The position numbers and the translations under genes are program-made. Positions 18,620 to 21,405 of a stretch of 64,000 nt of DNA are shown here, one piece after another. The stretch comes from Patellaria atrata CBS 101060. Taxonomy: Eukaryota. The notes under the pieces were generated by a model. The model saw only the letters and a program-made list of their open reading frames with translations. It was not told the DNA's origin and searched no databases. The first letter of the stretch is position 1. Each line of letters begins with the position of its first letter. Location of the stretch: contig MU006092.1 in NCBI GenBank assembly GCA_010093705.1, positions 688,623 to 752,622 on the forward strand, given 5' to 3'.

Positions 18620-19884
18620 TTAAGGATTATACCCAACCTCACCTAACCCATTCTTCAACGCATCGATAGCTTTCTCAATATCTCCTCTATTCGGATCTAC
18701 CACACTAACGCCCATATGTCCAAACCGGATATATTTCGTGGCAATCTCCTTATGCAGACCTCCAGCGAATACGACCCCCTTCTTCAGCAGATTCGGTAGT
18801 ACTTCGGGTGGAGTGATGCCATCTGGAAGATATATCGCCGTCATGCCATTTGCCTGATTTTCAGGTTTCATGGCCAGTTGTTTGAGCCCTAGGTCTGCCA
18901 CAGCTTTCTTAATTTTTTGCGAGGCCGCGCGATGAGCCGCGAAACGTTCGTCTAGGGGTTTGGAGAGGATTTGTGTGAGGGAGGTGTGGAGGGCGTGGAT
19001 GAGCTGCGGAGAGGGGGTGGCGAAGTAGGATGGTTTCTTTGCCTCGTAGTTTTGCATTACTGAGAGGATAACATGTGAGCGTCTGCTAAGGATAGGAATT
19101 GAAATGGAAACATACTTGGCAACCAATTCTTCCATGATGCGAAATACGATGTTGGTCTTGTTTTCCGTGCCTTGAAGCGCTCAATGGCACGACCAGATGC
19201 CATGAGTATACTTAACCCAGCTGGAACACCAATCCCTTTTTGGCTTGCGGTGAGGACGACATCGAGACCCCAGTCGTCAAAGCGAATCTCTTCAGAGCCG
19301 ACGCTGCAGACGCCATCCACGACTACTAATGTATTCGGACTGACTCTATGTACCAACTCTGAGAGCGCTTGGATTTCACTTAACACACCTGTTGAAGTGT
19401 CGACGTGCGTTACTGTCAGGATCTTGTACTCTTTTTCTGTCAAAGCCTTCTCCACCTCGTCCAATTGTGGTCTGTCTCCTATAGGCGCCCTCAATTGGGT
19501 TGCCTTTGCACCGTACGTCTCGAAGCAGTCGGCGAATGAATCCGCAAAGTAACCGGTGTGGAGGACGAGCACCTCATCACCAGGCTCTGATAGATTCGCG
19601 GCCACTTGGTCCCATCCTAACGTTCCAGAACCGGAGATGACGAAAGGTTGAGATGTGGGATTTGTTGTCTGGAATAGCTGACGTAGCATTGATAGTGTCT
19701 CGCCGAATGCTTTCACGAAGGGGGCGCCGACATGAGATTCACTGTACTGGTCAATATGTGATGTTCGATGTGATACAATGGGACGCATAGAATACCTGTA
19801 ATGGCTCATCGACTGGAGAACAGCATCATCGAACTCAATTGGCCCTGGAATCAGGAGGGCCGGGTGTTCTGGCTGACTAGACAT
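18620..19884 (-). CDS. AGX1: Alanine-glyoxylate aminotransferase (class V PLP enzyme), AUG-initiated form
   Basis: LLIPGP, SGSGTLGWD, THVDTSTG, VDGVCS, PLP-lysine motif TASQKGIGVPAG, SYFATP, YIRFGHMG. Introns 19795-19742 and 19115-19060. Confidence 0.92.
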
Positions 19885-20635
19885 CTTGCTCGATGTCTGT
19901 GTACTTTTATCCACAAGCTTTGATCTGAAGGGGTTGGGAGCAATATACTCGATGTCGTCTTCCGGGGATGCCGCTCTTTCTGTAGAAAATGGAGTGTTTA
20001 GTTCCACAAAGGGCCTTGTGTCTAAGTGTCTCGAGATGAGACTGAGTCGTGATGCAGCGCGTGAGGGAGCGTGGGGAGCCAGTATGAATGCGGGGAGGGA
20101 TGACGATGTGGAGGGGTAAAAAAGCCTTCGTAGTCCAGAAGCCAGGGTGATTGATTTGTTAGCTGTATACAGCCCGCAATTGATATACAATTCTGTACAA
20201 TATATACGAGATCCCAATCTTCTTTCGGCAAGTTCCAATTGTTCAGATGAGAATTTTTATACGGAATCAACGCGCACTTCTCCGCCTCCCGCAACTGTAT
20301 TCCTTTTGAGGGCAAAATCTAGGAGAACTATGGAGCCAGATAATCCTGCTACTGTCCTTTTTCGTCTCAGGGGGAATCGCGCGAGAATTGGAACCGGTAT
20401 AGGAACAGATAGAATCGTTAGAAACCCGGCGCAATGGATATATCGGAAGCAATTTGTAAGGTAGACTCAATGGACCTTCATTCAAAAACAAAACATTGGG
20501 CGAGTCAGCGCATCGGCTGTGCCTGCCAAGATCTCGCGCCTCTGGGGTCTATCACGCCGTTAGGCGTCATTAGAATCTTCCCCGAGTCGACGACAACAGC
20601 ACCAAATACTACATTGACATCTCCATGATACCGGC

Positions 20636-21405
20636 ATGACTTCGAGATTGGTGCTATGTCTGGGAGATCTGTTTATACCAGATAGAGCTTCGGTAAGTCA
20701 GCTCCAAATCTAATACCAAACCATCTATAGCTCGTGCATTAAGCTCACATACGATTAGGGAATTCCCGCAAAGGTACTGTAAACCGCTTGACCCGAAATA
20801 AATTCCATGACACTCATGTCTTGTAGTTTAAAAAACTCTTAGCCCCCGGCAAAATTGGCCAAATCCTTTGTCTGGGCAACCTCACCGATAAAGAGACCTT
20901 CGAATTCCTACGAGGCATAGCCCCGGATCTACAGATAGTGAAAGGCGATTTCGATGTCGAAGCACCAAACCTAGCTCTCTCGAAAGTCGTTACGCATGGC
21001 TCACTTCGCATTGGCTTCACCCATGGCCATACTATCATTCCTCCGGGAGATGCAGATAGTTTGCTGATCGCGGCGCGGCAGATGGATGTTGATATACTGT
21101 TATGGGGCGGGACACATAGATTCGAGGCATATGAACTCGAAGGGAAGTTTTTCGTCAATCCTGGAAGCGCTACGGGAGCAATGACGACGGGCTGGTGGCC
21201 GGAGGCCGAGGATCCAACACCCAGCTTTGTCTTAATGGATGTACGTTTATTCGAACTCTTTAAGACATGATAGACATGCTTACTCTGCATGCAGGTGCAA
21301 GGAGACGTATTAGTGCTGTACGTTTATCAACTACGAAAAGACGCGAATGGAGTGGAGGCCGTTGGTGTGGAAAAGGTCTCGTACCGAAAAAATGGTGGTA
21401 CTTAA
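20636..21405 (+). CDS. VPS29: Retromer subunit Vps29 (multi-exon)
   Basis: MTSRLVLCLGDLFIPDRA, 15-nt micro-exon 20759-20773, ILCLGNL, VKGDFD, GFTHGH, LLWGGTH, FFVNPGSATGA, SFVLMD. Confidence 0.95.

Follow-up and report, generated by a model that had tools for sequence, protein, structure and literature searches.

The AGX1 gene and the open frame upstream of it

Here we examine the 5' end of AGX1, the gene for alanine-glyoxylate aminotransferase (AGT), in a 64,000-nucleotide (nt) stretch of the genome of Patellaria atrata CBS 101060 (assembly GCA_010093705.1, contig MU006092.1, positions 688,623 to 752,622), which we call the window and whose own positions are used throughout. The reading frame of AGX1 continues upstream of the annotated AUG, and comparison with orthologues argues that this upstream part is conserved coding sequence, that it carries a type 2 peroxisomal targeting signal (PTS2) and that it is very probably translated from CUG codons. 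The gene and its upstream frame comprise the following features.

18620..19884, minus strand: AGX1 core gene, placed by tblastn of the public protein P0004, by Pfam and by the closest solved chain
19884-19796, 19741-19116 and 19059-18620, minus strand: the three AGX1 exons, with the stop TAA at 18622-18620
19795-19742 and 19115-19060, minus strand: AGX1 introns 1 and 2
19882..19884, minus strand: annotated AUG (GCAAG ATG TCT), start of P0004 and of the short, presumably cytosolic isoform
19885..19974, minus strand: acidic, Pro-rich linker up to the annotated AUG, variable in length and sequence among orthologues
19975..20004, minus strand: ELNTPFSTER block, right after the PTS2 (alignments A1 and A2)
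20023..20049, minus strand: PTS2 nonapeptide RLSLISRHL, identified by sequence match and conservation
20080..20082, minus strand: proximal start-like site (site 2), CTG in TTCATA CTG GCT, 11 codons before the PTS2
20083..20142, minus strand: Arg/Ser/Ala/Leu-rich, acid-free segment ASGLRRLFYPSTSSSLPAFI, a possible mitochondrial presequence
20143..20145, minus strand: distal start-like site (site 1), CTG in ATCACC CTG GCT, flanked by C at -4, A at -3 and G at +4
19885..20480, minus strand: 596-nt tract (leader and extension) without ATG in any frame
20254..20261, minus strand: TATAAAAA box, a putative promoter element read from the sequence, which encloses the in-frame stop TAA 20259-20257

The window gene belongs to the class V aminotransferases, as an alanine-glyoxylate aminotransferase (AGX1). 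Its exons encode P0004, a protein of 384 amino acids entered at NCBI as a pyridoxal phosphate (PLP)-dependent transferase / alanine-glyoxylate transaminase of Patellaria atrata CBS 101060; tblastn of P0004 against the window gives 98.6% identity over exon 3 and 92.6% over exons 1-2 read through intron 1, the mismatch being confined to the read-through intron. The Pfam family Aminotran_5 (PF00266) is detected on exon 2 at 2.2e-20 (73 bits, for a cut-off of 21.5) and on P0004 at 1.1e-23. The closest solved homologue of the core enzyme is chain 2bkw_A (alanine-glyoxylate aminotransferase 1; 4e-92 over residues 9-376), which we take to be S. cerevisiae Agx1. With 385 residues this chain has the length of the short form and is without the extension, unlike the extended frame of the window. 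PDB 1h0c and its relatives match at 1e-35. The window protein ends in GYNP and is without a type 1 peroxisomal targeting signal (PTS1), as had been noted in the original prediction, and the public model P0004 begins at ATG 19884, so that annotation restricted to ATG does overlook the extension.

Upstream of ATG 19884 the AGX1 frame is open for 124 codons, bounded by the TAA at 20259-20257, and its conceptual translation reads LASGLRRLFYPSTSSSLPAFILAPHAPSRAASRLSLISRHLDTRPFVELNTPFSTER... The original prediction had proposed that an isoform starts at the CTG at 20145-20143. We confirmed that this codon, in the context ATCACC CTG GCT, lies exactly 261 nt (87 codons) 5' of the AGX1 ATG in an open frame, and that positions 19885 to 20480 of the minus strand are free of ATG in all three frames; the nearest ATGs further upstream (20481 and 20496) are both beyond the in-frame stop. 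A GCTAAC is located just upstream of the CTG, at 20163-20158, and the promoter-like box TATAAAAA is present as described, although its coordinates had been given one base off (it spans 20261-20254). The 596-nt ATG-free tract was matched by none of 2000 dinucleotide shuffles (mean 8.5 ATG). The 261-nt extension taken separately is ATG-free in 6.9% of shuffles, so its lack of ATG is weak evidence by itself. The 87-residue extension matches no Pfam family. The decisive support comes from comparison, since orthologues share the motif, the reading frame and the start-like codons; a chance origin of the extension is rejected.

Conservation of the extension and its targeting signal

Among the 120 best homologues of AGX1, with N-terminal length measured to the LLIPGP anchor, 91 have at least 60 residues before the anchor, and 65 of these 91 contain R/K-[LVI]-x5-[HQ]-[LA]. 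Most of the other 26 have close variants (RLNLFSKHF, RLKQISKHI) or N-termini that appear to be mis-modelled, and 21 of the 120 homologues are annotated from the internal Met, like the window model. The shared architecture consists of a variable Arg-rich lead, RLSLISRHL, ELNTPFSTER, a variable acidic and Pro-rich linker, and K-M-S-S-Q-P-x-H-P-A-L-L-I-P-G-P, which contains the internal Met. The named sources that bear the extension fall into four classes, namely Dothideomycetes, Lecanoromycetes, Leotiomycetes (Rhynchosporium, Diplocarpon, Drepanopeziza) and Eurotiomycetes (Blastomyces, Histoplasma and Paracoccidioides of the Onygenales; Aspergillus, Penicillium). The Eurotiales orthologues P0204, P0216, P0225, P0228 and P0199 (Aspergillus and Penicillium) have the same PTS2 and ELNTPFSTER and end in ...AKGL, as compared with ...GYNP in the window.

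The annotated start of AGX1 is inconsistent across species. Several public models, among them P0003, P0006, P0015 and P0030, begin at far-upstream ATGs beyond the conserved region. P0029 of Alternaria arborescens is annotated from the second in-frame ATG (MSSPRSRAGS-RLKQISKHI), and L056, a locus 99% identical to it, has an in-frame ATG of weak context 21 codons upstream (MFAAPRLRLLAVNSRLQPRPS).

We then turned to the DNA itself. Metagenome contigs were scanned with alignment A1 (extension and exon 1), which found 244 relatives, and 80 loci were retained; L047 was dropped (core motif absent), and the remaining 79 loci plus the window yielded 57 distinct upstream open reading frame (ORF) translations, 23 identical ones being left out. 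These 57 distinct loci, which form 23 clusters at 70% amino-acid identity, are the basis of the counts below. A word search with extension residues 1-62 returned only 8 matches, owing to its requirement for a 5-residue word, and a profile search with alignment A3 was more productive. The 79 loci examined are all genomic, as judged from the presence of introns or from long genomic contigs, and none is transcript-derived. The position of the CTG or ATG, the frame and RLx5HL all recur across the orthologous loci. No in-frame ATG lies between the upstream stop and the PTS2 in 29 of the 57, and in 5 further loci the sole in-frame ATG falls beyond the conserved stretch, at a distance of over 45 codons upstream. 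Together, these comparisons argue that the extension is conserved coding sequence.

PTS2 signals are N-proximal and follow the consensus R/K-[LVIQ]-x-x-[LVIHQ]-[LSGAK]-x-[HQ]-[LAF], which RLSLISRHL fits at every position. The claim that this nonapeptide (20049-20023) is a genuine PTS2 is supported by its conservation: R/K-L-x5-H-L/I is found in 57 of 57 loci, the strict PTS2 form (scored by regular expression) in 45 and the identical RLSLISRHL in 31. The signal would occupy residues 12-20 of a product initiated at 20082, and residues 33-41 if initiation were at 20145. It is predicted to be functional in Pex7-dependent import.

The ELNTPFSTER block is more conserved than the flanks of the PTS2 and is not accounted for by the PTS2 consensus; its N, T, P, E and R show little or no variation among the four fungal classes (A1, A2). 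It could be an extended contact for the receptor or a co-receptor, or a processing site. Docking of the block on the enzyme core was not seen in an AlphaFold2 (AF2) model of the orthologue P0002 (built on 50 sequences), in which its predicted local distance difference test score (pLDDT) is about 40. The same model has a confident core and an extension with pLDDT below 50, with a weak short helix over the PTS2. A disordered extension with a helix at the PTS2 would fit a targeting peptide, at low confidence.

Start-like codons and the avoidance of ATG

Site 2 is a second in-frame CTG GCT that was absent from the original prediction, and it is the more widely conserved of the two start-like sites. 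All 57 loci have Met, Leu or Val at this site, mostly followed by Ala, 4-12 codons before the PTS2. Thirty-four loci have CTG as this codon, 18 have ATG and 5 have GTG. No other Leu or Val codon is used there, although of the 511 Leu codons in the neighbouring coding sequence just 112 (22%) are CTG. Counted by cluster, CTG is found at site 2 in 17 of 23 and other Leu codons in none. Within a single cluster of closely related loci, the codon ahead of an unchanged APQS-RLSLISRHL is ATG (L027, L030), GTG (L021, L023, L026, L029) or CTG (L032). The base at -3 is a purine in all 39 non-AUG cases, while the ATG cases have A (8), G (6) or C (4). As both sites were defined by patterns of our own choosing, only the codon identity and the bases at -3 and -4 are unforced. 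We take site 2, which is universal among the 57 loci and lies directly 5' of the PTS2, to be a likelier source of the peroxisomal isoform than the CTG at 20145.

Site 1 was searched 17-37 codons before the PTS2, either as RNN-CTG-GC or as an in-frame ATG. The CTG form is present in frame in 27 of the 57 loci (the two alternative frames yield 4 and 0 cases, and 2539 linker codons none) and the ATG form in 13; the two forms never occur together, and 17 loci lack them both. In alignment A3, the window Leu encoded by CTG 20145 shares its column with a Met in L005, L006, L007, L022 and L019, followed by ...RRLFYPS, and a CUG start at 20145 thus finds comparative support in the shared column and in the frequency of the two forms. 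Among the 26 loci in which the context of the CTG form could be read (L064, at a contig edge, was left out), all have A at -3 and 24 have C at -4, two bases that the pattern left free. Of the 13 loci with the ATG form, 11 have C at -3 and 9 have T at +4. At site 1, a weak-context AUG and a strong-context CUG therefore replace each other, which is to be expected if an intermediate efficiency of initiation is selected.

Conservation sets in at site 1 in both the CTG-type and the ATG-type families. Over 17 locus pairs, mostly from two families, we counted 143 differences from site 1 to the PTS2 and 624 in an equal length upstream. The substitutions from site 1 to the PTS2 fall on the three codon positions as 48/33/62, a direction that fits coding sequence, with a weak bias and pairs that are not independent. 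In L063 and two loci with the same upstream ORF, the residues AHRLPSLLCRRPL that follow a TCC are conserved, and a near-cognate ATC directly precedes this TCC. L008, L010, L011 and L024 have a stop 24-25 codons before the PTS2 and a site 1-like motif, GTCATTCTGGCG, apparently in another frame. This suggests that an indel may have disabled the long isoform in that lineage while site 2 (CTG GCT) was kept.

The first 41 residues of the extension had been described as acid-free, and the first acidic residue is indeed residue 42. From site 1 to the PTS2 (40 loci), the composition is R 14.8%, A 17%, L 14%, S 12% and D+E 0.6%, compared with 16.7% D+E in the linker, and 34 of the 40 loci have no acidic residue in this segment. 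The resemblance to a mitochondrial presequence thus stands for the composition, while the amphipathicity is weak (mean z 0.31). A mitochondrial isoform starting at 20145 is possible, and in our view somewhat less likely than not.

The coding sequence between the start-like codons and the annotated AUG is also nearly purged of out-of-frame ATGs. We counted these in 54 loci (12,633 nt), the other 3 of the 57 being omitted by the script for want of a Met within 16 residues of the anchor. From the first start-like codon to the annotated AUG there are 4 out-of-frame ATGs, compared with 46 +/- 5.6 in shuffles (minimum 33 in 200), and 50 of the 54 loci have none. The densities are as follows.

Extension, first start to annotated AUG: 0.32 out-of-frame ATG per kb
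Exon 1 after the AUG: 14.6 out-of-frame ATG per kb
Window exons 2-3: 9.4 out-of-frame ATG per kb

In the leader 5' of the first start, the median distance to the nearest ATG is 197.5 nt, for a background spacing of 62 nt. We take this depletion to be a signature of leaky scanning, and the leaky scanning proposed in the original prediction is supported by it. At the annotated AUG, 49 of the 54 loci carry A at -3, and the internal Met is conserved in orthologues. RNA structures downstream of weak starts can boost initiation; no prominent hairpin was found 3' of the three starts (z +1.21 at 20145, +0.12 at 20082 and +0.13 at 19884).

Further upstream lies a divergent neighbour.

20636 onwards, plus strand: divergent VPS29-like gene, with its ATG at 20636 (MTSRLVLCLGDLFIPDRA...) and its exon continuing at 20827-21270 (...GKIGQILCLGNLTDKETFEFLRGIAPDLQIVKGDFD...)

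We presume from its sequence pattern that this neighbour is a VPS29-like retromer gene. Since it starts divergently at 20636, the promoter and leader elements of AGX1 must fit within a shared bidirectional intergenic region of about 490 bp.

Readings of the nested starts and parallels in known systems

Our model is that the AGX1 mRNA would be read from nested in-frame starts by leaky scanning. Ribosomes would scan an AUG-free leader, a minority would initiate at the CUG at 20145 or 20082, both in strong Kozak context, and the remainder would pass through the AUG-free tract and reach the annotated AUG at 19884. The start at 20082 would produce Met-Ala-Pro-...-RLSLISRHL, for which Pex7 binding and peroxisome import are expected. 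The start at 20145 would add 21 Arg-rich, acid-free residues, which could act as a mitochondrial presequence or merely as a longer PTS2 leader, and the start at 19884 would give the 384-amino-acid cytosolic enzyme without PTS1. We consider it highly probable that nested non-AUG initiation gives a PTS2-bearing, peroxisomal isoform beside the cytosolic one. Transcription through these codons, initiation at them, the function of the PTS2 and any mitochondrial role are what we infer from the sequence and its conservation.

Several observations weigh against this model. The public runs that contain the stretch (X1, X2; one sample of one study) are DNA contigs which span the whole of it and are probably its source assembly, and no RNA run is listed. 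Many of the loci are related, so that our counts are not counts of independent events, and the pairs behind the onset of conservation at site 1 share this weakness. The AF2 model is of low confidence in the extension and says little about it beyond disorder. Site 1 is not universal, given its absence from 17 of 57 loci; L063 has a TCC at this site, 24 codons before the PTS2, and in L008 and L024 the CTG motif is apparently out of frame, on codon reading only. Finally, the maximal helical moment of the segment from site 1 to the PTS2 is barely above that of shuffles (28 of 40 loci above zero).

How many destinations are served is a separate question. In the fullest reading, one mRNA would supply three compartments, with the first CUG (presequence and PTS2) serving mitochondria, the second CUG (PTS2) the peroxisome and the AUG the cytosol. 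The strength of each start would set the split, and the trade of weak AUG for strong CUG or GUG would hold it constant across at least four classes of Pezizomycotina. We regard this as tentative, a possibility rather than an expectation. If true, the choice between mitochondrion and peroxisome made by mammalian AGT would have a counterpart here that arose by convergence and acts in translation, and the split could respond to changes in the stringency of start selection (eukaryotic initiation factors eIF1 and eIF5, and the status of eIF2 under starvation).

It could also be possible that there are only two destinations, peroxisome and cytosol, and that the segment between the CTGs is a longer PTS2 leader or that site 1 tunes the flow of ribosomes to site 2 and the AUG. 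The uneven distribution of the sites would agree with this, as every locus has site 2 and the PTS2, but 17 of 57 have no site 1 and one lineage has it apparently out of frame; so would a helical amphipathicity that hardly exceeds shuffles, and a PTS2 that still lies near the N-terminus (residues 33-41) when initiation is at 20145. However, the segment between the CTGs is conserved as protein (RRLFYPS and related), its composition is that of a presequence (R 14.8%, D+E 0.6%), and site 1 interchanges ATG and CTG with compensation in context, like a genuine initiation site. Two destinations are a possibility, short of an expectation.

Alternative transcription starts are an isoform mechanism in some mammalian AGT genes, and alternative transcription start sites (TSSs) could choose the isoform here as well: a long mRNA would give the organellar form and a short one, starting inside the extension, the cytosolic form, with leaky scanning in a minor role. 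P0029 is annotated at its second ATG in spite of the upstream in-frame ATG of its near-identical relative L056, which would suit this explanation. The distribution of mammalian AGT between mitochondria and peroxisomes varies by species (PMC3798809), and start-codon choice in some fungal genes is reported to be backed by alternative TSSs (PMC7049704). With a downstream TSS, however, out-of-frame AUGs in the extension would do no harm and need not be avoided, but in the 54 loci they are over 10-fold rarer than expected, and the compensation between weak AUG and strong CUG at site 1 points to selection on scanning efficiency. Alternative TSSs and leaky scanning can moreover coexist. As the main determinant of the isoform, we think alternative TSSs rather unlikely.

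An untranslated relic, left after loss of an upstream ATG and of the peroxisomal isoform and with a frame kept open by chance or as an element of the 5' untranslated region (UTR), would agree with the public P0004 model, which starts the identical protein at ATG 19884. But 29 of 57 loci, from many lineages, are without an in-frame ATG and yet have an open frame and an intact PTS2 and ELNTPFSTER, a Leu at the start position is always CTG, and decay would yield stops, frameshifts and ATGs, none of which is seen among related ATG-less loci. A decayed relic is very improbable, and we rejected it on the integrity of the frame, the PTS2 and ELNTPFSTER in the ATG-less loci. Least credible of all is a conventional ATG in an unrecognised upstream exon spliced onto the extension, which would dispense with a non-AUG start and could point to the branch point-like GCTAAC at 20163-20158 and to upstream GT dinucleotides. 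We rejected it because the frames opened by the nearest ATGs (20481, 20496) both close within 5 codons, the intron would have to exceed 300 nt, an AG directly 5' of the CTG is lacking from the window and from most loci (which have ATCACC, GTCATC, GCAATT and others), L025 has a stop two codons 5' of the distal CTG with no AG between them, and conservation starts at the CTG, with ATG and CTG in the same column.

Nested non-AUG initiation, as proposed here for AGX1, has relatives among known systems. Our searches of open-access papers and bioRxiv turned up no fungal AGT described as having a PTS2 or a non-AUG start. The nearest precedent is 6-phosphogluconate dehydrogenase (PGD, Gnd1) of Ustilago maydis, in which a cryptic PTS2 in the annotated 5'UTR is translated from non-AUG codons (Kremp et al., 2020; PMC7214817), and the AGX1 case would be another non-AUG N-terminal extension with a cryptic PTS2. 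PGD is likewise a housekeeping enzyme with a conserved PTS2 5' of the annotated AUG, and its non-AUG start leads to a minor peroxisomal isoform beside the cytosolic one. There are differences: PGD is another enzyme and initiates at a tandem AGG AUU, whereas the putative starts of AGX1 are CUG or GUG codons with a strong Kozak context that some species replace by AUG, and AGX1 has two nested start-like sites that are known by computation alone. With a single fungal non-AUG PTS2 isoform published so far, AGX1 would bring in a second enzyme family.

The same logic of start selection is known from other fungal genes. Fungal aminoacyl-tRNA synthetases achieve dual localisation through leaky starts, with AUG and near-cognate codons interchanging between species (Wallace et al., 2020; PMC7049704). 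They resemble AGX1 in having a weak or near-cognate start, a targeting peptide and a strong in-frame downstream AUG, but they target mitochondria only, while AGX1 embeds a PTS2 and may have three products. In N. crassa cpc-1, N-terminal extensions start from near-cognate codons conserved in Pezizomycotina, for which the flanking A at -3 and G at +4 are important (Ivanov et al., 2017; PMC5487733). The gene cpc-1 shares with AGX1 the conserved near-cognate start codons, these two context bases and the extension of an annotated ORF; unlike AGX1, it encodes a transcription factor under upstream ORF control and carries no organelle signal. Among these systems, the AGX1 locus stands out as an unusually clean natural experiment on start choice, with ATG, CTG and GTG in close relatives, a compensating context and a tract purged of AUG.

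A tie between fungal AGT and peroxisomes has been reported before. AGT1 of M. oryzae was described as peroxisomal by means of a C-terminal fragment ending in a putative PTS1, QKA, with no signal from full-length fusions (Bhadauria et al., 2012; PMC3338719). The accessible part of this report does not mention an N-terminal PTS2. AGT1 thus resembles AGX1 as a fungal AGT that ties glyoxylate metabolism to peroxisomes, and differs in having a putative C-terminal PTS1 where AGX1 has a predicted N-terminal PTS2. In Paracoccidioides, AGT and the PTS2 receptor are both among the proteins that increase on carbon starvation (PMC4014450). ATG-only gene models would hide the organelle-bound forms of this central glyoxylate-detoxifying enzyme, and with the extension hidden, localisation predictions and metabolic reconstructions would put AGT in the wrong compartment.

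In mammalian AGXT, the inclusion of an N-terminal extension sets the compartment, the peroxisomal signal is C-terminal and of the PTS1 type, and the starts are AUG. The enzyme family is the same as that of AGX1, for which we propose that inclusion of an N-terminal extension likewise sets the compartment; AGX1, however, has an N-terminal PTS2, putative non-AUG starts and a GYNP end without PTS1. Mammalian AGXT is variably mitochondrial and/or peroxisomal (Danpure, 1997, as cited in PMC3798809). AGX1 offers an evolutionary parallel to the problem of human AGT targeting in primary hyperoxaluria.

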